Below are positions 5,035 through 16,327 of a DNA stretch of 20,000 nt, one piece after another. The notes under the pieces were generated by a model. The model was not told the origin of the DNA. It saw only the letters and a program-made list of their open reading frames with translations, and ran no database searches. Positions within the stretch are counted from its first letter, which is position 1, and each line of letters begins with the position of its first letter. Made by a program: the position numbers and the translations under genes. The stretch is from an uncultured virus (IMG/VR IMGVR_UViG_3300028416_000015) (taxonomy: Duplodnaviria > Heunggongvirae > Uroviricota > Caudoviricetes > Crassvirales). Where the stretch lies: IMG/VR virus record IMGVR_UViG_3300028416_000015; one strand, 5' to 3'.

Positions 5035-5340
5035 CCGAAACTCCTACATGGTTCATATCACAGCTCCTACGTCGGGATACAGCGCTACGACTAGGAAACA
5101 TATACTCCTACGGGGCGCACCACCTCTTTCGAACTTTTTTTTATTTTTCTATATATATATATATATTTTATTTTGAAATCTATTGAAAAAAGTAGGTTAG
5201 TGGTAGGAGTCATCGTCAAACCTAGATACAGTAAGGGCTAGAGTACAATATGTTCAGTTTGTGCACTGCTTAGGAGTTTCGGGATTTGTTACATTTGCGA
5301 TTACATAAACCCTAGTGTTTATAGGGGGTCTTTACTCCTA
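5035..5340. repeat. ACTCCTA(C) motif cluster flanking an AT-rich core with (AT)8; origin-like
   Basis: Plus copies at 5040, 5064 (CTCCTAC), 5104, 5334; minus copies at 5203-5210 and 5271-5277; 12-bp IR 5035-5046/5271-5282; (AT)8 at 5151-5166. Confidence 0.6.
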
Positions 5341-5449
5341 TTGGGTGCACATATCCTCAGCTGAGAGCGTAAAAATATGACTCCCTTCCTAGGAACTCTA
5401 CACACTACTAGCGTTGCACCCCGAAAGGTACAAATAAATCAGTATTTTC

Positions 5450-5480
5450 TTGCATAGTTAAAAAAAAGGCGTTACATTTG
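5450..5480 (+). promoter_or_regulatory. Rightward promoter
   Basis: TTG (5450-5452)-N20-TACATTTG (5473-5480), 16 nt before ATG 5497. Confidence 0.75.
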
Positions 5481-5496
5481 TCAAAAATTCAATATT

Positions 5497-6222
5497 ATGA
5501 GAGAAGGAAAATTTATGGGTCACAGAGTGACTAGCGACGGAAAAATCTTCGGAAAGCGTAATCCTAATGTTACACTTAAACCGTATTTGAGCCATGGGAA
5601 GTTGGCATTAAAGATCAACAGAGAGACACATTATTTGCATAGAATTGTTGCAGAGGTGTTCAATTTGAATGGTTTTAATAAGTATGACAAGAGTAAGGTT
5701 GTGTTATTTAACGATGGAGATTCTATGAACTGTTCTTTGGATAATTTATATGTTCAAGATTTAGAGGATAGGATGAACGAGGTTAGACAGGAGATGGTTT
5801 TAGATATGGGTAGAGGTGTTAAGACTTCTATGTATTCTTATGTTTATGCTAAGAAGGATAAATGGGTTGGTAAGTATAAGGGTAAATACTTAGGTACTTT
5901 TAAGAATGAGGATGATGCTTACTATGCTGTTGAGGAGCATAGGAGATCAGTTGATACAGTTCCAGTTCATAAGTTCGATGGTTTGTATAAGGTTAATAGG
6001 CTTGGTGACATTTTTAGTGTTAGGTATAATAAGGTGTTGTCTCAAGGTGCGCTTGATGGGTCTGTTTCACTTACTGACAAGGATGGTAAGCGTACACGCA
6101 GGTCTATTGGGCTGTTGGTGTATAATTCGTTTAATAGGAAGAACCCAGCGAAGAGGGTAACACATATAGATGGTGACCCGATGAATAATATGTTAGGTAA
6201 TTTGAAGGGGGAGAAGGCATGA
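5497..6222 (+). CDS. HNH-endonuclease-derived protein: degenerate HNH + AP2-like + NUMOD4/HNH
   Basis: LHRIVAEVF...FNDGDSMNCSLDNL (His replaced by Phe); TSMYSYV..KW...YLGTFKNEDDA (AP2-like); GLYKVNRLGDIFS (NUMOD4-like); VTHIDGDPMNNMLGNL (HNH). Confidence 0.75.
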   Translation: MREGKFMGHRVTSDGKIFGKRNPNVTLKPYLSHGKLALKINRETHYLHRIVAEVFNLNGFNKYDKSKVVLFNDGDSMNCSLDNLYVQDLEDRMNEVRQEMVLDMGRGVKTSMYSYVYAKKDKWVGKYKGKYLGTFKNEDDAYYAVEEHRRSVDTVPVHKFDGLYKVNRLGDIFSVRYNKVLSQGALDGSVSLTDKDGKRTRRSIGLLVYNSFNRKNPAKRVTHIDGDPMNNMLGNLKGEKA

Positions 6223-6953: not shown

Positions 6954-7144
6954 TAAATAAGATAGGATTGGTATTTGGGGTTGTTCTTATGATAGTATTT
7001 TACTACATAACGTTCAACCCTCAGATATTAGACGTAGAGACAGAGTTTGATCGCTTGTACAGGATAATAGGTACATTTGTAGCTAGTCATGGTTTTTTTG
7101 GTGCATATTTATGGATAAATTATAAGGAATGGAGAGGATATTAA
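6950..7144 (+). CDS. Small membrane protein (2 TM)
   Basis: 64 aa with two hydrophobic stretches. Confidence 0.65.
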   Translation: MINKIGLVFGVVLMIVFYYITFNPQILDVETEFDRLYRIIGTFVASHGFFGAYLWINYKEWRGY

Positions 7145-7503
7145 TAAATAACGAGTGGTACGTAAAGGAATCTAGTCAAGCACCTAAAGAAGATATTAAG
7201 GTTGACTTTATGTTTAGTAACTCATGCATTGTAGAGACAGATAAGTTCTGTTTTGAAGCTACTAGATGTATGAAAGATGGTAATGTAGAGTATTATCCAG
7301 ACATATCTATAGATGTTACAAAAAAAGAAGGTGATAGAAAGGATTGGGGCAAAGAATATTGGGATGGTAATGAATGGATGAGAGGCGTGTTAAATGGAGA
7401 CACTAAATGTTTAGCAGGTCTAGCAGAATATGTAACAGACGCTTACAATCAGAAGGTGTTTATGAAATTATTAAAGAAACTAGGTGAAATAGGTTGGTTA
7501 TGA
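7129..7503 (+). CDS. Hypothetical phage protein
   Basis: 124 aa ORF in the operon. Confidence 0.75.
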   Translation: MERILINNEWYVKESSQAPKEDIKVDFMFSNSCIVETDKFCFEATRCMKDGNVEYYPDISIDVTKKEGDRKDWGKEYWDGNEWMRGVLNGDTKCLAGLAEYVTDAYNQKVFMKLLKKLGEIGWL

Positions 7504-7895
7504 TAGTATTAGGTGTAATTTTAGTAGGATTAGCAGGATTTTTTAAAGCTGTGATGGATAAACTTCAGTTCCATTGGCATAGATCTGTGTTTGCTGTGAA
7601 TCCTGTTCGTTATAGGGAGTTGTTTTGGAATCCATCTATCAGCTGGATAAACAAGTATGAGCCAGGGACTAACTATAAGGAAGAAAGGTTTAAATTCTCA
7701 ACAACATTGTTAGTATTTTTAACAGATGCTTGGCATTTGGCACAAATGAGTATGACGTTATTGCTTTTTGTTGGTATTGGTATGATAGGCTATATGTCTG
7801 ATAGCTTTTTACAGTTATTATTGTTCGTATCTTTGGCTAGAATACTATACGGAGTTACATTTGAGTTGAGTTTTAAATATTTATTAGAAGCATAA
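7500..7895 (+). CDS. Multi-pass membrane protein
   Basis: ATG 7500 overlaps the previous stop; several hydrophobic segments; TDAWH motif. Confidence 0.75.
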   Translation: MIVLGVILVGLAGFFKAVMDKLQFHWHRSVFAVNPVRYRELFWNPSISWINKYEPGTNYKEERFKFSTTLLVFLTDAWHLAQMSMTLLLFVGIGMIGYMSDSFLQLLLFVSLARILYGVTFELSFKYLLEA

Positions 7896-8032
7896 TGGTT
7901 AGATTTGTTGATAAGTTCGCTACTACTAGTTGTTTGACTCTAGGGAATTATTATATAGTAGACCGTGTTGAAGGAAATTACTATAGATTAGTAAACGTAA
8001 AGTATAAATATCCAAAATATTATTTCGAATGA
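7895..8032 (+). CDS. Hypothetical protein (45 aa)
   Basis: Manual translation MVRFVDKFATTSCLTLGNYY...; TAATG and ATGA coupling with neighbours. Confidence 0.55.
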   Translation: MVRFVDKFATTSCLTLGNYYIVDRVEGNYYRLVNVKYKYPKYYFE

Positions 8033-8340
8033 AGGTAAAAGTAAAATGCATCGATGATAGTATAAAGCCAGAATTCATTATAGAAACAGTAAAGTATTTT
8101 AAAAATTGGCTCGTGAAGGGCGAGATATACACTGTTTATGATGTTGTAAATAACGATGGCATAGTGGAGGGGTATTTATTGGAAGAGCTAGAGAACGAGC
8201 CAGTGTATCAAAAGTTATTAGGTAAGGAACAAGAACCCGCATTCAGAACTGATCGGTTTGAAGTCGTATCTTACGAAGAAGAAGAAGAGGAGGAAGAAAG
8301 TGAAGAAGTTGAGCATCTTTTTGAAGTATTTTTGAATTAA
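8029..8340 (+). CDS. Hypothetical protein with poly-Glu tail
   Basis: 103 aa; GAA/GAG run near 8275-8298. Confidence 0.75.
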   Translation: MKVKVKCIDDSIKPEFIIETVKYFKNWLVKGEIYTVYDVVNNDGIVEGYLLEELENEPVYQKLLGKEQEPAFRTDRFEVVSYEEEEEEEESEEVEHLFEVFLN

Positions 8341-8364
8341 ATTAAAAAATAATTACTATCTTTG
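8331..8364 (+). promoter_or_regulatory. Bacteroidota-type promoter
   Basis: TTTG 8331-8334, TATCTTTG 8357-8364; same 22-nt spacing as the promoter at 146-178. Confidence 0.65.
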
Positions 8365-8369
8365 TAACC

Positions 8370-8451
8370 GTTGAGTCGTACCAACATTTATGAAATTATT
8401 TAAAATCCCAGCAATGATAGGAAGTACGACCCTTGATTTGTTGGGTTTTTT
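8370..8451 (+). ncRNA. Putative structured 5' leader RNA (kissing-loop + terminator-like hairpin), copy 2
   Basis: P1 GUUG/CAAC with loop AGUCGUAC. P2 CCCAGCAA/UUGUUGGG, internal loop UGAU/UGAU, inner AGG/CCU, loop AAGUACGAC. GUCGUAC pairs with GUACGAC. U6, then ATG at 8457. Confidence 0.75.
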
Positions 8452-8456
8452 ATTAT

Positions 8457-9123
8457 ATGGAAATATTTAAAGACATACCTGGTTATGAGGGTATTTATCA
8501 AGTTAGTGATTTAGGTAGAGTTAAGAGCCTTAAGTTTAACAAAGAAAAAATATTAAAGCCAGGAGTAAATAATCATGGTTATTATACTGTAGTATTATGC
8601 AAAGGAAAACGAAAAACTATTAATGTACATCAATTGGTAGCTATGGCTTTTTTAAATCATGAGCCTTGTGGTTATAATGGATTAATAGTAGATCACAAAG
8701 ATAATAATCCTTTAAACAATAGATTATCTAATCTACAACTAATAAGTCAAAGAGAAAACACAAGTAAAGATAAAAAAGGATCATCTAAATACACTGGAGT
8801 TAGTTGGAATAACCCATAATAGTAAATGGGTTTCATCAATAGTAATAAACGGTAAATTAAAATACCTAGGTTATTTTGATTTAGAAGAAGAGGCAGGTAA
8901 ATATTATCAAGATGCGTTAAAATCTATAGAGGAAGGAAGTGAAATAATAGTTAAAGAACCTAAAACATCTTCTAAGTACAATGGTGTTTGTTGGGATAAA
9001 AGAGCTAATAAATGGAGATCTGTTATAAAAATAAACGGAAAACAAAAACACTTAGGTAGTTTCAACTGTGAACTAGCAGCATCTGCTGCATATCAAAAAA
9101 AACTAGCCGAAATAAGTAAATAA
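8457..9123 (+). pseudogene. NUMOD4-HNH-AP2-AP2 homing endonuclease, split by a +1 frameshift near 8813-8815
   Basis: NUMOD4 (FKDIPGYEGIYQVSDLGRVKS) and HNH (VDHKDNNPLNNRLSNL). AP2 starts SSKYTGVSW, stops at 8819, and resumes in the +1 frame (HNSKWVSSIVINGKLKYLGYF...SSKYNGVCWDKRANKWRSVIKINGKQKHLGSF) to TAA 9121-9123. Confidence 0.85.
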
Positions 9124-9163
9124 ATAAATAAATTGATTATCTTTATAAAAAATTTAATAGAAA

Positions 9164-10648
9164 ATGGACAAAAAATTAGAAAAAATGGTCGTTTTTGATA
9201 AGAAAGACTTATTAGAAGGAGTTGAGACTTTAAGAAACGCAGTTGAAGTAACATTAGGACCTAAAGGGGAGTACGTTCTGCTGCAATCGCCACTCTATGT
9301 TGGCGGTAAGGCTTACACTAAGGACGGCGTAAGTGTTGCTAAGGCGGTTATCTTAGACAATAAGATTCAAGATCTTGGTATTCAAACGGTTAGAGAGGCT
9401 GCTCTTAAGACAGCTGAGGAGTCTGGTGACGGAACTAGTAATACAATCATCGTGGCTTCATCGTTGGTTGAGGCAGCAGATGACTTTATTGATGAGAGTC
9501 ATAACAAGAATGAGGTTATTCGTGACATGAATGCGATAGCCAAAGAGGTTGAGAAGTATTTATTGAAGAAATCTAAGAAGTGTAATAACTTGACTTTGCG
9601 TAAAGTCGCTGAGATAGCAGGTAATGGCGATAAATCTACAGCTAAAATGGTTGCTGACTTGTATAAGAATACAGAGCAGATAATTTTAGAGAGAGGTAAA
9701 AAGTCTAGTACTTATTCAGAGGTTATTGATGGTTTAGTTATTGACCGTGGTTTTACGTCTAAGTTCTTTGTTAATAATCAGAAGAGACAAGAGTGCGTTT
9801 TAGAGGACGCTTTAATCTTATTCACTGATACAGAGATAGATAACACTCAGTCTATTGAGCATGTATTAAAATATGTTGTTAAGGAGGATATTCCTTTACT
9901 TATCGTAGGTAATTTAACAGCTCCTGCATTGGCTACAATGAACTTGAACGTTCAGAAGGGGAATATTAAGTTTGCTAATATAATTCCACCTAGTATGGGT
10001 TATCAGAAGGAATTACTTATGACAGACTTAGCTGCTATGAGTGGTGGTATCTTCTATAGTGAGATGAGTGGTGATAATCTTAGAGATGTTACTTTAGAAG
10101 GTCTAGGTAAAGCCTCTAAGGTTGTTGTAGGTAAAGATAAGACTATTATTATACCAAAAGAAGAGAATACAAGCTATTTAAACGAAATCAAAGGTTCTGA
10201 ACAGACAGACTTCTTAAAAGAGCGTATAAGTAAGATTTCTGGAAACTTATCTACTATATATGTAGGAGCTAAAACTGAGTCAGAGACTAATGAGTTGTAT
10301 GACAGAATAGAAGATGTTATCTTGAGTTGTAAATCAGCTATCGAGCAAGGTGTATTACCTGGTGGAGGTGTAGCGTTAAAGGATGCGTTCTTGAATTGTG
10401 ATATTGAAGCTAGTGATGTAGCTTATAAGATAATGAGACAAGGGTTATTCACACCTATACAAACATTATCTGGATATAAGCCTGTGAATACGGAGAGAGG
10501 GATAGGTTATGACGCAAGAACTGGAGAAGAATGTGATGTAGCTAAGAAAGGGATTTATGATCCAACTAAAGTTACAATATCAGTTCTTCAGAACTCTATG
10601 TCTGTAGCAACAACAATTATTAACACAAAAACTATTGTCTTACAATGA
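9164..10648 (+). CDS. groEL: Phage-encoded chaperonin GroEL-like (Cpn60)
   Basis: Motifs VTLGPKG, TKDGVSVAK, GDGT, DRGF, DRIED, PGGGVAL, GIYDPTKV; 494 aa; no GGM tail. Confidence 0.95.
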   Translation: MDKKLEKMVVFDKKDLLEGVETLRNAVEVTLGPKGEYVLLQSPLYVGGKAYTKDGVSVAKAVILDNKIQDLGIQTVREAALKTAEESGDGTSNTIIVASSLVEAADDFIDESHNKNEVIRDMNAIAKEVEKYLLKKSKKCNNLTLRKVAEIAGNGDKSTAKMVADLYKNTEQIILERGKKSSTYSEVIDGLVIDRGFTSKFFVNNQKRQECVLEDALILFTDTEIDNTQSIEHVLKYVVKEDIPLLIVGNLTAPALATMNLNVQKGNIKFANIIPPSMGYQKELLMTDLAAMSGGIFYSEMSGDNLRDVTLEGLGKASKVVVGKDKTIIIPKEENTSYLNEIKGSEQTDFLKERISKISGNLSTIYVGAKTESETNELYDRIEDVILSCKSAIEQGVLPGGGVALKDAFLNCDIEASDVAYKIMRQGLFTPIQTLSGYKPVNTERGIGYDARTGEECDVAKKGIYDPTKVTISVLQNSMSVATTIINTKTIVLQ

Positions 10649-10920
10649 AAGCATTAGGACACTATATATTAATAAAGCCAATAGAGAAAACTAAGGAGAC
10701 CAATAAAAAGACAGGTCTCCTTCTAACCTCTACATCAGCAGAGAATGAGCGTTACCAAGAAGGTATCGTTCAACTTGTTGGAAATCAGATAGATACTATA
10801 AAAGAAGGTCAAAAAATCTCCTTCGACAAAGTCTCAGGTCATTATATCAAGATAGATGATGAGCATCTAATGATTATAACTTTTCGAGACGTTGTTCTAG
10901 TTTTTGATGAGGAGGAATAG
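10645..10920 (+). CDS. groES: Co-chaperonin GroES-like (Cpn10)
   Basis: MKALGHYILIK...TGLLL (mobile loop)...GIVQLVG...IKEGQKISF...DVV; 91 aa; ATGA-coupled to groEL. Confidence 0.85.
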   Translation: MKALGHYILIKPIEKTKETNKKTGLLLTSTSAENERYQEGIVQLVGNQIDTIKEGQKISFDKVSGHYIKIDDEHLMIITFRDVVLVFDEEE

Positions 10921-11386
10921 CAGCATCTATTTCTCTATTAACTGAATTGACTGCAGCTACCAGACCATTATTTTCATAACCTGTTAGCTGCATTCTTTTT
11001 TCTCCTTTGAATAGTTCATAAGTATGCTTAACTATGTTCTTTCCTTTAAGAGTCATGTGATAAAGGTCTCTTCTCATACCATCTTTCTTTTTACCAGCCC
11101 ACAAACATATTAACCCTCTGTCTAACAGGTATTCTAACGATCCGTTACCACTAGCGTTCATTCTATAGGTTCTTATTATGTCTGACTTACCGAAAATATG
11201 TTCTGTATATAGGTAGAACAGCACATCTAGGTCTGCCTTTTTTATTTGGTATTTATTTGATACAAACCTTATGATAATCTTATGGTATTTCATAAAGTCG
11301 TTAGTTGGGTTTGTGTATCCGTAATTCTTGTATCTTACTTTTTTCTTTCTTTTAGTGTGTACAGGTATGTAATATCTATCGCTCAT
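10874..11386 (-). CDS. Putative winged-helix (MarR-like) DNA-binding protein
   Basis: Likely start ATG 11386 (MSDRYY), downstream of a minus-strand TATCTTTG. DLDVLFYL...LEYLLDRGLI...RRDLYHMTLKGK resembles a MarR-type wHTH wing. Confidence 0.65.
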   Translation of the reverse strand: MSDRYYIPVHTKRKKKVRYKNYGYTNPTNDFMKYHKIIIRFVSNKYQIKKADLDVLFYLYTEHIFGKSDIIRTYRMNASGNGSLEYLLDRGLICLWAGKKKDGMRRDLYHMTLKGKNIVKHTYELFKGEKRMQLTGYENNGLVAAVNSVNREIDAAIPPHQKLEQRLEKL

Positions 11387-11394
11387 ATTTTTAG

Positions 11395-11426
11395 TATATT
11401 TGTATTTAATTTTTTTTACAAAGATA
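11395..11426. promoter_or_regulatory. Face-to-face promoters for divergent genes
   Basis: Plus TATATTTG 11395-11402 and minus TATCTTTG 11426-11419, within a 40-nt intergenic gap. Confidence 0.6.
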
Positions 11427-12737
11427 ATGATATTTGCTCGACCTTTAAAATATGTATTAGGTAGAATTGTCCCTTTTGGGCAGTTTGAGACTATTAATCC
11501 TATTAATTTAGGTACAGGTGAAGCAGATAGTAATAAATTTTTGAATGGAGATGGGCTTTGGGCTAATATAACTGGGGGAGATATTAATATTGACGATTTT
11601 GTTTTTGTATCTGCAAAATCTGATTTGCCTACACCAGTATCAAACGTAATAACCTTAGCAGACAACGTAACTTATTACTTCACTACAACAGTAGATTTAT
11701 TAGGAGATAGATTAGTAGGTGGGGAGAACACAGTTATACTTGGTGCTTCTTCTGAAAATAGTAGAATTAAATCAACTGGGTTAGGTGTTGGAGTAGCTTT
11801 ATTCACTACTGAATGGACAACACCAATAAGACACGTAACTTTTCAAGATGTAGATACTGCTTTAGACATAGATGGAAGTGTTAATCCTCCATTAGCTTTA
11901 GATTGGACAGGAGTAAACTTTCTAAACGTGCCTAATATAGGTAAAATTGACACTGCTGATAACTGGATATATTCTAAAGGTGCATTTCTTAATAGTCAAA
12001 ATTTGCAATTTGATGGAAGTCATGGGACAATAGGAATAGACAATAGTATTTTTGTTGGTAGTGGCTCGGCTGGAAATATATTAGATGTACTTTCGACTTG
12101 TACAATTACAAGAAGATTTAGGTTAATTTATAGTTCTGTTGTGGCTTTCGGCTCTAGTGTGGGTATAAATGTTGATGTAAGTGCAACTATACCAACAGAG
12201 GGTTATATTTTAGATACAATAAACTTTAGTGGTGGTGGTACTTATTTAAGTGGTGTTGATTATACCGATAATAAAACACGTTTTGTTAACTCTAAAGGTA
12301 TTGATAATACTGCTGAGATAGGTAACTATTTTATGACAAATAATGCTACTACAACAACTATTTCAACAGTAGATACACCTGTTAAAGCATTAGGTACAAC
12401 AACTGCAAACGCTATAAATCAAAAATTCACTCATACAGATAATAGACTTACTTATGTAGGTGCTTTAATTCGTGATTTTCAAGTTACTGCTACTATATCC
12501 TTAACAAGTGGTAATAATAAGGTTATAGGTGTTTATGTAGCTAAGAATGGTACAGTAATAACATCAAGTGAAATGTATTCAACAACTTCGGGAAGTGGTC
12601 GTGCTGAATCCGTTACTTGCCAAACTATCTTAGAATTAAACGAAAATGATTATGTTGAAATTTGGGTAGAAAATTCAAGTAATACAGATGATGTGACAGT
12701 TGAGTATTTGAACGTAATATGTAAATCTTTAAATTAA
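11427..12737 (+). CDS. Virion/tail-fibre-like protein, beta-rich, with C1q/TNF-like C-terminal domain
   Basis: Start ATG 11427 (MIFARP); T/S/G/N-rich; ends ...ILELNENDYVEIWVEN, typical of C1q/BclA-C-like folds. Confidence 0.6.
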   Translation: MIFARPLKYVLGRIVPFGQFETINPINLGTGEADSNKFLNGDGLWANITGGDINIDDFVFVSAKSDLPTPVSNVITLADNVTYYFTTTVDLLGDRLVGGENTVILGASSENSRIKSTGLGVGVALFTTEWTTPIRHVTFQDVDTALDIDGSVNPPLALDWTGVNFLNVPNIGKIDTADNWIYSKGAFLNSQNLQFDGSHGTIGIDNSIFVGSGSAGNILDVLSTCTITRRFRLIYSSVVAFGSSVGINVDVSATIPTEGYILDTINFSGGGTYLSGVDYTDNKTRFVNSKGIDNTAEIGNYFMTNNATTTTISTVDTPVKALGTTTANAINQKFTHTDNRLTYVGALIRDFQVTATISLTSGNNKVIGVYVAKNGTVITSSEMYSTTSGSGRAESVTCQTILELNENDYVEIWVENSSNTDDVTVEYLNVICKSLN

Positions 12738-12740
12738 ATA

Positions 12741-12917
12741 ATGATACAAGTAACAAGTAAGCAAAAAGGGCTCGGAGATACTATCGAGTACATTACCGAG
12801 AAGACAGGTATAAAATATGCTGTAGAAATGGCTACTAAGGCTGTAGGTATAAAAGATTGTGGGTGTAATAAAAGAAAAGATATACTTAATAAATATGTGA
12901 ATTATGGGAGAAAGTAA
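12741..12917 (+). CDS. Small phage protein (GLGDT...TGIK...DCGC motif), 58 aa
   Basis: Manual translation MIQVTSKQKGLGDTIEYITEKTGIKYAVEMATKAVGIKDCGCNKRKDILNKYVNYGRK. Confidence 0.75.
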   Translation: MIQVTSKQKGLGDTIEYITEKTGIKYAVEMATKAVGIKDCGCNKRKDILNKYVNYGRK

Positions 12918-13164
12918 GTCAAGTAAATATTACGCATCTAATCCAGCAGCGAAAGCAAAAAAGAACGCTTACCAAAAGGAATATAACAAAACAACAGCTG
13001 CTAAGAAACACAGAGCTGAATGTAATAAAGGTAGAAAGAAGTTAGGATTAAAGAAAGGTGATAAGAGAGATGCTAGTCATACAAAGTCAGGTAAAATGGT
13101 AGCAGAAAAGAGGTCTACTAATAGAGCTAGGCAAGGAGCTGGAGGCAAAAGAAAATTGAAATAA
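12904..13164 (+). CDS. Small very basic protein, minimal HNH-like
   Basis: 86 aa, K/R-rich; DASH...STNRAR resembles a reduced HNH motif. Confidence 0.65.
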   Translation: MGESKSSKYYASNPAAKAKKNAYQKEYNKTTAAKKHRAECNKGRKKLGLKKGDKRDASHTKSGKMVAEKRSTNRARQGAGGKRKLK

Positions 13165-13169
13165 ATTCG

Positions 13170-13177
13170 TAACTTTG
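13170..13177 (+). promoter_or_regulatory. -7 promoter element
   Basis: TAACTTTG in the intergenic gap, 22 nt before ATG 13200; no clear -33 element. Confidence 0.5.
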
Positions 13178-13199
13178 TATCACTTAAAAAATTACAGAA

Positions 13200-13553
13200 A
13201 TGGTAAAACAGAAACAAAGATATATACCTAAAGTTAACAATGTAGATGTTACAGGGTGGAACGCTGCAACGGACTTCACTACTGACTTTATAGAGTTCCC
13301 AGAGTCAACACAGTGGCTTTTAGATGTTCAAGATTGGGCGAGTGTAACAGCTGGAACACCAGTACTTAGCATTTTGGTAAGTAATGAGCAAGATGGAGAA
13401 TATAAGAACTATAGTGCGTTAGCTTCATCTATTGACTTAACTGTTGCTAACAATAGGGTAATATATGATGAGATTTTCTCTAGTAGATATATGAAGATTC
13501 AATATACTTCAGGTGGATCTACAGGTACGTTTGATTTAATACTTAGTAAATAA
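13200..13553 (+). CDS. Putative virion protein
   Basis: 117 aa, beta-strand-like, in the structural cluster. Confidence 0.6.
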   Translation: MVKQKQRYIPKVNNVDVTGWNAATDFTTDFIEFPESTQWLLDVQDWASVTAGTPVLSILVSNEQDGEYKNYSALASSIDLTVANNRVIYDEIFSSRYMKIQYTSGGSTGTFDLILSK

Positions 13554-14731
13554 TGGATTTAAGGAAACAGAATGACATAGTAACTCCTAGTGAGATAGTA
13601 AATTTTGACCAAGACACTCCTACAACTGGAGGTGTTGTTTTTGATCCTAATACTCCAGCTACAACAGATGTTTTATATGTATCTAGTACTAATGCTAGTA
13701 CTTGGATATATAACGGTTCATCTTACGTTACTTATGATGTACCTAAAGTTCAGTCTACACCATTTTTTCTTTATGGTACAGATATAGATGCTGGAGGAAA
13801 TAAAACAGCCTTTATACAGCGTAATGGTCCTATATTTATTAATTCAGGTGCAGCTAACGGTAGTAGGTACGCTGGATATATTTACAGCAGAACAACATCT
13901 GGAGTAAGTAATGGGCTTGTAGTAAAAAAGGATTTAAGAACTACGTCTGGTAATTATTTACTTTTACAAGGTCAGAATTTTTCTACAGGTGCTACAGAGG
14001 ACAAGTTTAAAGTAGATCACGATGGTAAGACATCATCTTACGGTACTCATCAACCTAATATTCAATCAGTAGTTTCTTCGGCAACAGTAACACCAAACGC
14101 AGATACGGATGATGAAGTAGTAATTACAGCACAAGCAGAAGCCTTGACTATTGCTAATCCTAGTGGTACACCAACTGATGGTCAAGCTATGTTTATAAGG
14201 ATTTATGACGATGGTACAGCTAGAGGTATTACATGGGGAGTTAATTACGCAGGAACAGGTTTACCGACAACAACAGTAGTTGGAACAAGCATCTACGTTC
14301 CGATAGTGTATAATTCATCTACAAGCAAATGGGATAATATAGACCAAACAGGGGTAGTTAATTCTATTCCAGTATCTATTCAGTTAGCTATTTCAGATGA
14401 AACCACAGCACTAACAACAGGCACATCTAAATTGACTTTTAGAATGCCTCATGCTATGACTTTAACAGAGGTAAGAGCGAGTTTAACAGGAGCAGGTTCT
14501 ACAAGTGGAACTACTACTTTTGATATAAATGAGGGTGGAGTGAGTGTTCTTTCAACTAAGTTGACTATTGATTTTGGAGATACTACTTCGGTTGGAGCTA
14601 CAACTCCTGCTGTAATTTCAGATAGTGATTTAGCAGATGATTCTGTTATAACGATAGATATTGATGCTGTTACAGGTGGAGCAGATGAAACAGGTGGTAA
14701 AATAACATTAATAGGAACTAGGTTGTTATGA
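13553..14731 (+). CDS. Tail fibre-like mosaic protein
   Basis: 392 aa, T/G/S-rich, modular; coupled to neighbours. Confidence 0.6.
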   Translation: MDLRKQNDIVTPSEIVNFDQDTPTTGGVVFDPNTPATTDVLYVSSTNASTWIYNGSSYVTYDVPKVQSTPFFLYGTDIDAGGNKTAFIQRNGPIFINSGAANGSRYAGYIYSRTTSGVSNGLVVKKDLRTTSGNYLLLQGQNFSTGATEDKFKVDHDGKTSSYGTHQPNIQSVVSSATVTPNADTDDEVVITAQAEALTIANPSGTPTDGQAMFIRIYDDGTARGITWGVNYAGTGLPTTTVVGTSIYVPIVYNSSTSKWDNIDQTGVVNSIPVSIQLAISDETTALTTGTSKLTFRMPHAMTLTEVRASLTGAGSTSGTTTFDINEGGVSVLSTKLTIDFGDTTSVGATTPAVISDSDLADDSVITIDIDAVTGGADETGGKITLIGTRLL

Positions 14732-15405
14732 TAATAAATCCTTATATATTTGGCGGTGCTACTAATCCTCTTTGGAATGGATTACAAGCCTACTATACAG
14801 CTGATAGTACTCCTAACGATGCAATAGGTAGCAATAACGGTACACTTGTAAACGGTGCAACTTATGGGACTGGAATAATTAATCAAGGTTTTAGCTTAGA
14901 TGGTGTTAACGATTATATTGATATGGGTACTTCATTTCCAATTATTACTGGAGATATGACTCTATCATTTTGGTTTAAAGGTTCTTTTCAAAATGCATCT
15001 GTAGGACATTTAAATAGAATGGGAGGACCTGGGTTTCGTGGTTTTTTATTTGGAGCAAATAATACTAACAATTTTTTAAGATTTGATATCTCCCCGGACG
15101 GGTTAACGTTAAAACAATTAACTTATTCACATGGTAGCACTTTTTCAGCAACAACATGGTATCATGCAGTTGCAGTTTTCAAAACTTCTAGTTATATGCG
15201 TATCTATTTAAACGGTAGTCAAGTAGCTGAAGAAACTGCTTCTATACCTTCTACTCAAACTCAGCCTAGTTCATTTGTTTTTGATATAGGCAAGAGAGGT
15301 TCATTAATGGGTGTTACAGATGAAATAGGTGTTTGGAATAGAGAATTAACACCAACAGAAGTAACAGAATTATATAACAGTGGTTCAGCATTACAATATT
15401 CATAA
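14728..15405 (+). CDS. LamG/concanavalin A-like jellyroll protein, copy 1
   Basis: LDGVNDYI, TLSFWFK, TWYHAVAV, IYLNG, DEIGVWNRELTPTEVTELY: Laminin_G_3 signature. Confidence 0.85.
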   Translation: MIINPYIFGGATNPLWNGLQAYYTADSTPNDAIGSNNGTLVNGATYGTGIINQGFSLDGVNDYIDMGTSFPIITGDMTLSFWFKGSFQNASVGHLNRMGGPGFRGFLFGANNTNNFLRFDISPDGLTLKQLTYSHGSTFSATTWYHAVAVFKTSSYMRIYLNGSQVAEETASIPSTQTQPSSFVFDIGKRGSLMGVTDEIGVWNRELTPTEVTELYNSGSALQYS

Positions 15406-15422
15406 ATAAATAAAAAAAAATC

Positions 15423-15626
15423 ATGGCATACGCAATAAAACCAATAGCAGAATTAGAAACGTTTGATTATTCACTTTGTAGTGGTTATTCAACAAAGGAC
15501 ACAGTTAGAAAGTCATTAGACGGTCAATTCTTCTTAGTAGAGGGAGAAACTTTCACAGACTTTACACACGCTGAAATATTAGTGGAAATGGAAAAACCTA
15601 ATTGGACAGAACAAACACCGATATAA
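15423..15626 (+). CDS. Small acidic protein, LamG partner copy 1
   Basis: 67 aa, paralogous to 16341-16541 (VEGETF..FTH..IL....KP.WTEQ). Confidence 0.75.
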   Translation: MAYAIKPIAELETFDYSLCSGYSTKDTVRKSLDGQFFLVEGETFTDFTHAEILVEMEKPNWTEQTPI

Positions 15627-15628
15627 CT

Positions 15629-16327
15629 ATGAACGGATACTACAGACTTATAGCCTCGATGAGTAGGGGTGGTGGTGGAGTCAATCCTTTATGGAATGGC
15701 TTATTAGCTTATTATACTGCTGATAACACTCCTAACGATGCTTTAGGAACTTACAACGGTACACTTGTGAACGGTGCAACTTATGGAACTGGTATTATTA
15801 ATCAAGGGTTTAGTCTTGATGGCGTTAATGATTATGTTGATATGGGGACTTCATTTCCTATTATAACAGGAGATATGACTCTTTCTTTTTGGTTTAAGGG
15901 TGCTTGGCAAGGTGTTAACGTTGGTGGGTTAGGTAGGTTAGGTGGAGGTGGGGCCAGAGGTTTTCAGTTCGGGTCTAGTACACTCAATAATTTTTTGAGA
16001 TTTGATTTAGCACCAGACTTATCGACATTAAAGCAATTAAGTTATTCTCATGGAAGCACATTTTCACCTACTACATGGTATCATGCAGTCGCAGTTTTCA
16101 AAACTTCTAGTTATATGCGTATTTACTTAAATGGTAGTCAAGTAGCTGAAACAACAACGTCTATTCCATCTGCTCAGGCTCAAAGTCCAGCTATTCCGTT
16201 AACATTTAATTTTAGAGGTTTGTTAAGTGGAGTTGCAGATGAAATAGCTATCTTTAACACAGCAAAAACACCAACAGAAATTACAGAATTATATAGTGGC
16301 GGTAATGCCTTACAATATCCAAACTAA
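15629..16327 (+). CDS. LamG/concanavalin A-like jellyroll protein, copy 2
   Basis: Start ATG 15629 (MNGYYR); close paralog of 14728-15405. Confidence 0.85.
   Translation: MNGYYRLIASMSRGGGGVNPLWNGLLAYYTADNTPNDALGTYNGTLVNGATYGTGIINQGFSLDGVNDYVDMGTSFPIITGDMTLSFWFKGAWQGVNVGGLGRLGGGGARGFQFGSSTLNNFLRFDLAPDLSTLKQLSYSHGSTFSPTTWYHAVAVFKTSSYMRIYLNGSQVAETTTSIPSAQAQSPAIPLTFNFRGLLSGVADEIAIFNTAKTPTEITELYSGGNALQYPN

Follow-up and report, generated by a model that had tools for sequence, protein, structure and literature searches.

A folded RNA leader with covarying kissing loops upstream of NUMOD4-HNH nuclease genes in Bacteroidota phages

Two copies of a folded leader in one window

The window analysed here is a stretch of 20,000 nucleotides (nt) from an uncultured virus placed in the Crassvirales (IMG/VR record IMGVR_UViG_3300028416_000015). 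It holds two NUMOD4-HNH nuclease genes, each of which is preceded by a compact leader made up of a promoter box, a small hairpin (P1), an A/U-rich linker, a terminator-like hairpin (P2), a U-tract and the start codon. The two copies lie in different contexts and in opposite orientations. Both are members of a family of folded RNA leaders that is widespread in Bacteroidota phages and so far uncatalogued. The shared architecture had been predicted by a model from the letters alone, and we found it base for base in both copies. The features are given below, read from the sequence, with ViennaRNA in addition where it is named.

Copy 2
8357–8364 (+): −7 box, sigma-A type, TATCTTTG; predicted transcript start at about 8369
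8370–8385 (+): P1 hairpin, GTTG 8370–8373 paired with CAAC 8382–8385 (also ViennaRNA)
8374–8381 (+): 8-nt loop of P1, AGTCGTAC; the loop–loop segment GTCGTAC is 8375–8381
8386–8406 (+): linker, 21 nt, A/U-rich, single-stranded, includes ATTATT
8407–8445 (+): P2, terminator-like hairpin (also ViennaRNA)
8407–8414 and 8438–8445 (+): basal stem of P2, 8 base pairs (bp) including one G-U, CCCAGCAA paired with TTGTTGGG
8415–8418 and 8434–8437 (+): symmetric internal loop of P2, UGAU/UGAU, tandem G-A type
8419–8421 and 8431–8433 (+): apical stem of P2, 3 bp, AGG paired with CCT
8422–8430 (+): 9-nt loop of P2, AAGUACGAC; the loop–loop segment GTACGAC is 8424–8430
8446–8451 (+): U-tract, T6, immediately 3' of P2
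8457 (+): start codon ATG

Copy 1
153–146 (−): −7 box, TATCTTTG; predicted transcript start at about 141
126–141 (−): P1 hairpin, ACTG 141–138 paired with CAGT 129–126, loop AGTAGTGC (also ViennaRNA)
136–130 (−): loop–loop segment in P1, GTAGTGC, which pairs with GCACTAC at 85–79
125–106 (−): linker, 20 nt, A/U-rich
105–62 (−): P2, basal stem of 10 bp including one U-G pair, apical stem AGG/CCU (also ViennaRNA)
within 105–62 (−): asymmetric internal loop of P2, GAGUA/GAAA, loop-E-like (AGUA opposite GAA)
85–79 (−): loop–loop segment GCACTAC, in the 9-nt loop of P2, AUGCACUAC
60–56 (−): U-tract, T5, 1 base 3' of P2
1–51 (−): ATG at 51 and start of the second NUMOD4-HNH gene (MEIFKDVPGYEG...), which leaves the window

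The loops of P1 and P2 contain segments that are exactly complementary over 7 nt in copy 1 as well as in copy 2. The leaders themselves are 80% alike, and their loop–loop helices differ at two pairs, both compensated: GTCGTAC/GTACGAC in copy 2 against GTAGTGC/GCACTAC in copy 1, as the original prediction had read them. The AUUAUU motif that it had placed in the linker is indeed present in both copies but is not a general feature, with ATTATT found in only 8 of 54 family linkers. A covariance model of the leader, when run over the window, matched only these two copies.

In both copies the minimum-energy fold computed with ViennaRNA consists of P1 and P2. The copy 1 fold reached −23.1 kcal/mol (z −2.88), and 1 of 200 shuffled sequences folded as well; the copy 2 fold reached −17.6 kcal/mol, with 24 of 200 shuffles as good. 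In isolation, P1 is barely stable (−1.2 kcal/mol in copy 2, −2.0 kcal/mol in copy 1) and P2 is strong (−12.8 and −15.4 kcal/mol, respectively). Duplexes of cognate loops were calculated at −9.0 and −9.4 kcal/mol, compared to −2.3 and −3.2 kcal/mol when the loops were crossed between copies. Since P1 is barely stable alone while the cognate loop duplex is strong, the loop contact would hold P1 in place. The weakness of the crossed duplexes suggests that the window's two copies do not cross-pair.

P2 together with its U-tract has the terminator-like form that had been claimed for it: a stable hairpin with 3–4 G-C pairs at its base is followed directly by T6 or T5. In both copies a run of A residues 5' of P2 is able to pair with the U-tract. 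When the 20-kb window was scanned for stems followed by a T-tract, both P2 hairpins were among the few terminator-like hairpins found. At the other end of the leader, the −7 box resembles the TAnnTTTG box of sigma-A promoters, located at −12 to −5 in Flavobacterium according to a published account (PMC9723704). The window contains the pattern TATNTTTG 22 times where 8.4 would be expected, and none of 200 shuffles reached 22.

Relatives of the leader and the genes behind them

We collected relatives of the nuclease from IMG/VR (the best 80 of 187 and, with a protein-alignment query, the best 80 of 540), from metagenomes (the best 80 of 486, as 79 loci) and from species genomes (the best 80 of 259). 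By eye, many upstream regions of these relatives share the plan of the window's leaders with wholly different loop letters. With a first covariance model, one set of 100 sources yielded 24 matches and a further set of 100 yielded 28, all of them nuclease-centred loci. Each of these 52 matches lay on the gene's strand and ended at its ATG, which marks the leader as specific to that position. A second model (R2, 33 leaders), run over 286 sources, gave 41 matches at E ≤ 0.1; none fell among the non-Bacteroidota genome loci or the distant loci searched in the range L021–L080, except for one in L169, a metagenome-assembled genome of the PVC group (E 0.088). R2 was no more sensitive than the first model for the long-P1 type, and the covariance model covers mainly the short-P1 type.

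The plan was also searched for with a descriptor that asked for three features: a P2 of terminator-like form, an upstream hairpin loop with a Watson-Crick complement of 7 nt or more inside P2, and the promoter box. It matched 64 of 267 unique upstream regions, 54 of these with the box. Controls gave far fewer matches: 10 among 1335 shuffles (2 with the box) and 7 among the 267 reverse complements. The descriptor mis-parsed copy 2 through a spurious A/T-rich pair; copy 2 is covered by the covariance model. A sigma-A type box, from which the transcript start is predicted, accompanies both window copies and 54 of the 64 descriptor matches.

Covariation was measured on an alignment of the 33 best model matches (30 distinct rows), with the loop–loop helix scored as a pseudoknot. 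The covariance model had been built from 12 leaders and given P1 and P2 only; because such a model cannot represent a pseudoknot, the alignment is not fitted to the loop–loop helix. Across the 30 distinct leaders, P1, P2 and the 7-bp loop–loop helix together had 93.6% of their cells paired, compared to 58.5% in shuffles. The covariation score was 0.82 against 0.20 in shuffles, none of 500 shuffles scored as high, and the score fell to 0.06–0.10 when the partners were slid by 1–3 columns. Two-sided changes were seen at all 4 P1 pairs, which extends the P1 covariation noted between the window copies (GTTG/CAAC against ACTG/CAGT) to the whole family, and at all 8 basal pairs of P2. In the loop–loop helix, 6 of the 7 pairs have changed on both sides and 90–93% of cells remain paired; several positions take three or four pair types, and the loop letters are not conserved. 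RNAalifold independently predicted P1 and the basal P2 stem, with compensatory changes in 12 of 12 pairs. Stem cells held 30 G-U against 10 A-C combinations, and this excess of G-U indicates that the sense strand is the folding strand. Cells of the loop helix were Watson-Crick in 175 of 191 cases and G-U in 1 of 191. These results agree with the original view of a conserved sense-strand RNA module, the covariation being seen in P1, P2 and the loop–loop helix, and homologous leaders found by the model do keep their loop–loop complementarity.

Other parts of the anatomy are held in common as well. The median linker is 17 nt long, and A+U makes up 89% of linker letters. The internal loop of P2 reads UGAN/NGAU, as in copy 2, in 21 of 54 leaders, and AGUA opposite GAA, as in copy 1, in 13 of 54; we take these to be modules of the tandem-GA and loop-E-like kinds. 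P2 ends 9–13 nt before the ATG in all 30 distinct aligned leaders, and P1 starts at +0 to +2 of the predicted transcript start in 29 of the 30. By a rough length estimate, the linker is long enough for the loop–loop helix and the full P2 to exist together. A correlation of linker length with helix length (rho −0.45) is an artefact of how the descriptor splits stem from linker, and we draw no inference from it. A leader-peptide attenuator was considered and rejected: the ATGs within the two leaders differ in place and frame, and the one in the copy 2 linker is absent from the aligned family.

The leader is present in cultured phages. In Flavobacterium phage FCV-1 it stands before gp61 (E 1e-9; L342:1055–1160, that is, NC_041845.1 40354–40459), a gene annotated as hypothetical that encodes an HNH nuclease with two AP2-like repeats. 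Relatives of FCV-1 gp61 occur in about 60 deposited F. columnare phage genomes. Polaribacter phage P12002L also carries the leader (E 1.4e-10). Among bacterial genomes, matches were obtained in 2 of 5, only at phage-like nuclease loci, with 150 of the several thousand first-look candidates per genome scored. In 150 other genomes of the host family, of which 26 of several thousand candidates per genome were scored, there was no match at E ≤ 0.001.

An Rfam 15 cmscan of the whole window at E ≤ 10, which we take to include HEARO, gave nothing at 49–153 or 8357–8459, in keeping with the original statement that no match to a familiar family could be made; its only window matches were two weak and unrelated ones, at 12306–12373 and 13490–13513. 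When the leader and gene were compared with phage records by blastn, matches began only from about 10 bases 5' of the start codon, at query position 105 or higher, and none extended to P1, the linker or P2. Likenesses to hammerhead, pistol and k-turn RNAs were examined and discarded, since the core letters disagree and nothing in Rfam matched. Full-text searching of the literature, with subscription-only papers outside its reach, found no description of such a leader. We conclude that the leader family, its variable-letter lock, its tandem-GA/loop-E module and the set of genes behind it were previously undescribed, while terminator leaders and a kissing loop on a terminator are known kinds.

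Gene contexts were read from whole IMG/VR records (19 matches in 18 of 36 records and 20 matches in 19 of 50); the resulting counts are biased, since every record was chosen for holding an HNH relative. Of these 39 matches, 30 stand before HNH genes, 7 before replication-initiator-like genes and 1 before a GIY-YIG gene, and 1 is cut by the contig end (L355). The 30 NUMOD4/HNH-type genes have several architectures (AP2, double AP2, other C-termini); HNH was called by Pfam for L325 and L326, by PHROGs for L345 and L347, and by the N-terminal motif or as tblastn loci for the others. The seven replication contexts (L332, L333, L337, L338, L351, L352 and L357) carry PHROGs annotations of replication initiation O-like protein, DnaD-like helicase loader or primosomal protein. 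L332 is the gp44 context of phage P12002L (NC_028924.1 34373–34477, minus strand). In L333, L337 and L357 a conserved open reading frame of about 68 amino acids, without known family, precedes the initiator gene. By an eye reading, not counted by script, all seven replication-gene leaders keep loop–loop complementarity with letters of their own. The remaining context, L360:109–426 (−), is a small GIY-YIG gene (PF01541, 23.2 bits against a cut-off of 22.6) whose class-1-like leader has a 10-nt complementarity, so that a second, unrelated nuclease family has such a leader.

Leader identity does not follow nuclease identity (r = 0.05; 1326 pairs, 52 leaders). Leaders that are 96–99% identical stand before proteins that are 39–65% identical. 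For example, in L325 and L326 (records G031 and G008) the leaders are 96% identical and the nucleases 39% identical; the shared block begins at the −7 box, the flanks differ, and a homologous neighbour gene lies on opposite sides of the cassette. The uncorrelated identities, together with a shared block that begins at the −7 box, suggest that promoter and leader form a portable unit that is shuffled among genes. The original idea of a module travelling with a selfish nuclease therefore stands in part: the leader moves with its promoter between contexts, but it also precedes replication-initiator-like genes in 7 of 39 cases. The decoupling of leader and nuclease argues against a site that is read by the particular nuclease. 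Autoregulation by the HNH protein through the leader, which had been offered as one possible function, is thus disfavoured by the absence of correlation, by near-identical leaders (96–97%) before nucleases with 39–49% identity and by the occurrence of leaders before non-nuclease genes.

Some relatives use the loop word in a further way. In 4 of 54 class-1 leaders, class 1 being the type described so far, the P1-loop word is repeated 0–2 nt before the ATG over 7–9 nt (L090, L289, L261 and L280; shuffle p ≤ 0.005). In those four, the P2 loop could pair either with P1 or with the start region. The window copies have no convincing complement of the P2 loop between the U-tract and ATG+10: copy 1 has none, and for copy 2, where the automated comparison relied on a wrongly parsed P2 loop (5 nt, shuffle p 0.77), inspection by eye gave none either. 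An antitoxin-like small RNA, also put forward originally, finds no support here, as the window copies lack complementarity to their own start regions.

A second class of leader stands before other HNH genes, including both HNH genes of P12002L, gp22 and gp33. Here a three-way junction, in which GGAUAG and GAAAG are conserved, is closed by an outer stem with a U-tract, and one hairpin has a 3-bp stem and a 9-nt loop. Bases just 3' of the U-tract are complementary to this loop; the complementary word mostly occurs twice, near −20 and near −6 relative to the ATG, and the complementarity was present in 8 of 8 leaders tested (shuffle p ≤ 0.01). In a MAFFT alignment of 10 class-2 leaders, 94.7% of cells were paired compared to 72.5% in shuffles, and 4 of the 7 pairs of the pseudoknot have changed on both sides.

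Class-2 leaders, loci: L267, L264, L011, L110, L311, L144, L140, L147, L158, L087; L339:1430–1535; L343:790–890

Both classes share a short-stemmed 9-nt loop within a terminator-like stem, seeking a distal partner. The complementarity between loop and start region in these relatives points to control at the start site.

Proposed function, known systems and alternatives

With moderate confidence, we propose that the element throttles or times expression as a portable, promoter-proximal terminator leader. Of the functions offered originally, the attenuator remains the most probable. In this model, which is drawn from sequence comparison, Bacteroidota phages would carry a portable expression cassette, and the element would be the 5' leader of its transcript. 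Transcription by host RNA polymerase would start at the sigma-A type promoter, and the RNA would begin at the foot of P1. Once the top of P2 is made, the P1 loop would capture the P2 loop over 7 bases, or up to 12 in relatives. P2, presumably stiffened by its tandem-GA or loop-E-like internal loop and followed at once by the U-tract, would then be shaped like an intrinsic terminator. Whether begun at the cassette's own promoter or in upstream genes, most transcripts would end as an RNA of about 83–86 nt, and only read-through would reach the gene. P2 would thus be the terminating hairpin, the loop–loop contact would stabilise the closed state rather than open it, and opening could be the task of a factor acting in trans. 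In leaders of the window's type, the fold probably also hinders ribosome loading, since the ATG lies only 9–13 nt from P2. Bacteroidota mRNAs are without a Shine-Dalgarno site and mRNA structure tunes the initiation of their translation, as one study describes (PMC6847099). The predicted outcome is low or delayed expression wherever the cassette is located. Such expression would suit homing nucleases and, in related phages, the replication-initiator gene.

Several known systems resemble the leader in part. At lambda nut/tR1 and HK022 put, a structured RNA between an early promoter and a terminator gates delayed-early genes, including the replication initiator. The leader has no sequence likeness to either, no N-like factor was identified, and here the terminator hairpin belongs to the fold itself. 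RNA I and RNA II of ColE1 form fully paired loop–loop helices of about 7 nt, whose letters set specificity. That kissing acts between two molecules, whereas the leader holds both partners. HEARO, the omega RNA of IscB, lies beside an HNH-domain gene; it is far larger and serves an RNA-guided nuclease as its guide. Compared to it, the leader has no free guide segment, no IscB and no Rfam match at either copy.

The only studied RNA with the leader's layout is the guanidine-IV riboswitch (mepA motif), which shows the same order of P1, linker and P2 terminator with poly-U and the same kissing loops (PMC11611296). In that RNA, kissing needs guanidine, the loop letters are conserved, the contact opposes the terminator, and the element precedes exporter genes (PMC11611296). 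The leader has a 7-bp loop helix (at most 12 bp in relatives), free letters, no apparent ligand pocket and no Rfam match. It therefore shares the two-hairpin kissing and terminator layout and has neither the conserved loop nucleotides nor the exporter context.

A precedent is provided by homing-endonuclease genes of T-even phages, which are likewise selfish nuclease genes kept low or late by a 5' terminator or by structure at the start site. T4 mobE is held back by an intrinsic terminator with an efficiency of 30–50% (PMC2790892), whereas I-TevI, Aeh1 mobE and segB are restricted by start-site hairpins (PMC3014915). Those brakes are simple hairpins without a tertiary loop–loop contact, unlike the leader described here. 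In addition, T4 mobE is without its own promoter and has the terminator inside the gene, whereas the leader has its own promoter. The T4 hairpins hide a Shine-Dalgarno site, a site that Bacteroidota mRNAs do not have (PMC6847099).

Certain observations weigh against a terminating brake. The copy 2 fold beats its shuffles only modestly (z −1.49). A generic promoter and terminator scanner did not call P2; this scanner does not cover Bacteroidota promoters, and the P2 loop and internal loop exceed its size rules, which accounts for the missing call. Given the near-absence of G-U in the loop helix, covariation there cannot by itself separate RNA pairing from a strict DNA inverted repeat. A pure brake is also odd before a presumably needed replication-initiator gene, as in 7 of the 39 matches, and this oddity makes a factor-opened gate more plausible than a constitutive throttle. 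Finally, the loop–loop contact of guanidine-IV opposes its terminator (PMC11611296), so that the effect here may be of either sign.

The last two points lead to a reading of opposite sign, in which the loop contact, alone or held by a protein of phage or host that recognises the tandem-GA or loop-E module, would hinder the terminator from being completed or from acting, and the leader would be an antitermination switch for delayed-early genes, namely the replication initiator and the nucleases. Its action would resemble that of a nut or put site, or of a guanidine-IV RNA that needs no small ligand. The layout is that of guanidine-IV, whose kissing loop hinders the full terminator stem (PMC11611296), and pairing of the A-run with the U-tract would shorten the free linker, as described for that RNA. 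A protein-friendly non-Watson-Crick module is kept in P2 of 34 of 54 leaders. Seven of the 39 matches precede replication-initiator-like genes, three of them with the conserved arrangement of small open reading frame and initiator. However, the median linker of 17 nt lets the loop helix and the full P2 coexist by the rough estimate given above, the variable loop letters offer no obvious ligand pocket, and no candidate factor was identified. On this evidence we consider a contact that opposes the terminator unlikely. A fuller version of the switch would be a portable promoter-terminator leader with a freely evolving loop–loop address that gates the replication initiator, has been captured by homing-endonuclease cassettes and is opened by a trans factor reading the kissing fold and the tandem-GA or loop-E module. 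This would amount to nut/put-like antitermination of a new design, and in relatives the loop would alternate between the P1-loop decoy and the start-codon region. We consider this fuller version unlikely as well.

The terminated RNA of about 85 nt might instead be the product, a trans-acting small RNA that uses the loop letters as its address and, in the manner of an antitoxin, targets for instance the nuclease mRNAs of its own or a co-infecting phage. Its anatomy, a 5' hairpin, an A/U-rich single strand and a terminator with a U-tail, would fit such a role, as would the orthogonality of the window copies (−9.0 and −9.4 kcal/mol cognate against −2.3 and −3.2 kcal/mol crossed) and the loop complement in the pre-start region of class-2 and four class-1 relatives. 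In the window copies, however, the loop is occupied in cis and has no complement near the start codon; the element is always joined directly to a gene in a fixed register, and the same addresses recur in unrelated phages. A trans-acting product is therefore improbable in our view. The strict Watson-Crick character of the loop–loop segments (1 of 191 cells G-U) raises the further question of a DNA-level element, either inverted sites formed by the 7-mers that a protein would bind, for instance the AP2 domain of the nuclease as an autorepressor, or an origin or primosome-loading signal formed by the structured A/T-rich stretch beside replication genes. I-TevI reportedly represses its own promoter, class-2 leaders carry one inverted copy and, before the ATG, two direct ones, and the leader adjoins replication-initiator genes. 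Against this, the segments invariably sit in hairpin loops, the stems of these hairpins covary and show a G-U bias for the sense strand, the promoter sets the RNA start at P1 in 29 of 30 leaders, a U-tract follows P2, the same 7-mer stands before unrelated proteins, and leader identity is independent of nuclease identity. A DNA-level role is accordingly very unlikely. Least probable of all is that the leader is an ordinary pair of promoter and terminator, of the sort to be expected anyway at cassette borders, with loop–loop complementarity a by-product that has no effect on expression: across 30 distinct leaders the complementarity survives two-sided changes at 6 of 7 positions, 64 of 267 unique upstream regions have it compared to 10 of 1335 shuffles, and P1, barely stable alone, would hardly be kept without its partner.

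Gene control in Bacteroidota phages is almost unmapped, and their hosts lack Shine-Dalgarno sites and use a promoter type of their own. At about 85 nt, the leader described here is a compact regulatory RNA whose tertiary contact covaries. It is common among phages of marine and fresh waters and also occurs in cultured ones. If it terminates as predicted by the terminator-leader model, it would explain how selfish nucleases stay harmless wherever they land; the nucleases and the replication initiator would also have a common control device, so that homing would be coupled to the replication phase. A reprogrammable 7-bp loop–loop lock on a terminator could be a natural part for orthogonal control in Bacteroidota.

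The copy 2 nuclease gene and its surroundings

The gene behind the copy 2 leader is divided between two reading frames.

8457–8819 (+): NUMOD4-HNH reading frame, 120 codons, ends in stop codons (Pfam NUMOD4 E 2e-17, HNH_3 E 1.1e-9)
8821–9123 (+): continuation of the nuclease in the +1 frame, two AP2-like repeats (Pfam AP2 E 4e-11)

The frameshift lies near 8806–8822, with stop codons at 8817–8825. Relatives of this nuclease read straight through, the full-length proteins having about 160–237 amino acids with AP2. Contigs of run X3 contain a variant that skips 8807–9030 and would leave a single AP2 repeat. Over the part present in the window, the start of the copy 1 gene is 88% identical to that of copy 2 (tblastn).

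Directly behind the nuclease cassette, 9164–10920 (+) holds a GroEL-like gene (PHROGs E 3e-100) and a GroES-like gene. A peptide-pattern scan of IMG/VR found no close relatives of the GroEL-like gene and no empty cassette site, and megablast of 9164–16000 against known phages gave no match. As for the cassette borders, the DNA contigs of four runs over 7000–10500 were short fragments, none of which joins across the cassette. A search for RNA runs covering 7800–9300 found none.

Elsewhere in the window, a large non-coding region separates divergent gene blocks, and by eye it includes a G+C-richer stretch behind a TACATTTG box at 5290–5450 (+). The part from 5296 to 5450 matches nothing in Rfam, and shuffles fold as well as it does (z −0.12). 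A third HNH gene, of another family, is encoded at 5497–6222 (+) (PHROGs HNH E 8e-24). It has no structured leader; a TACATTTG box lies 17 nt 5' of its ATG.

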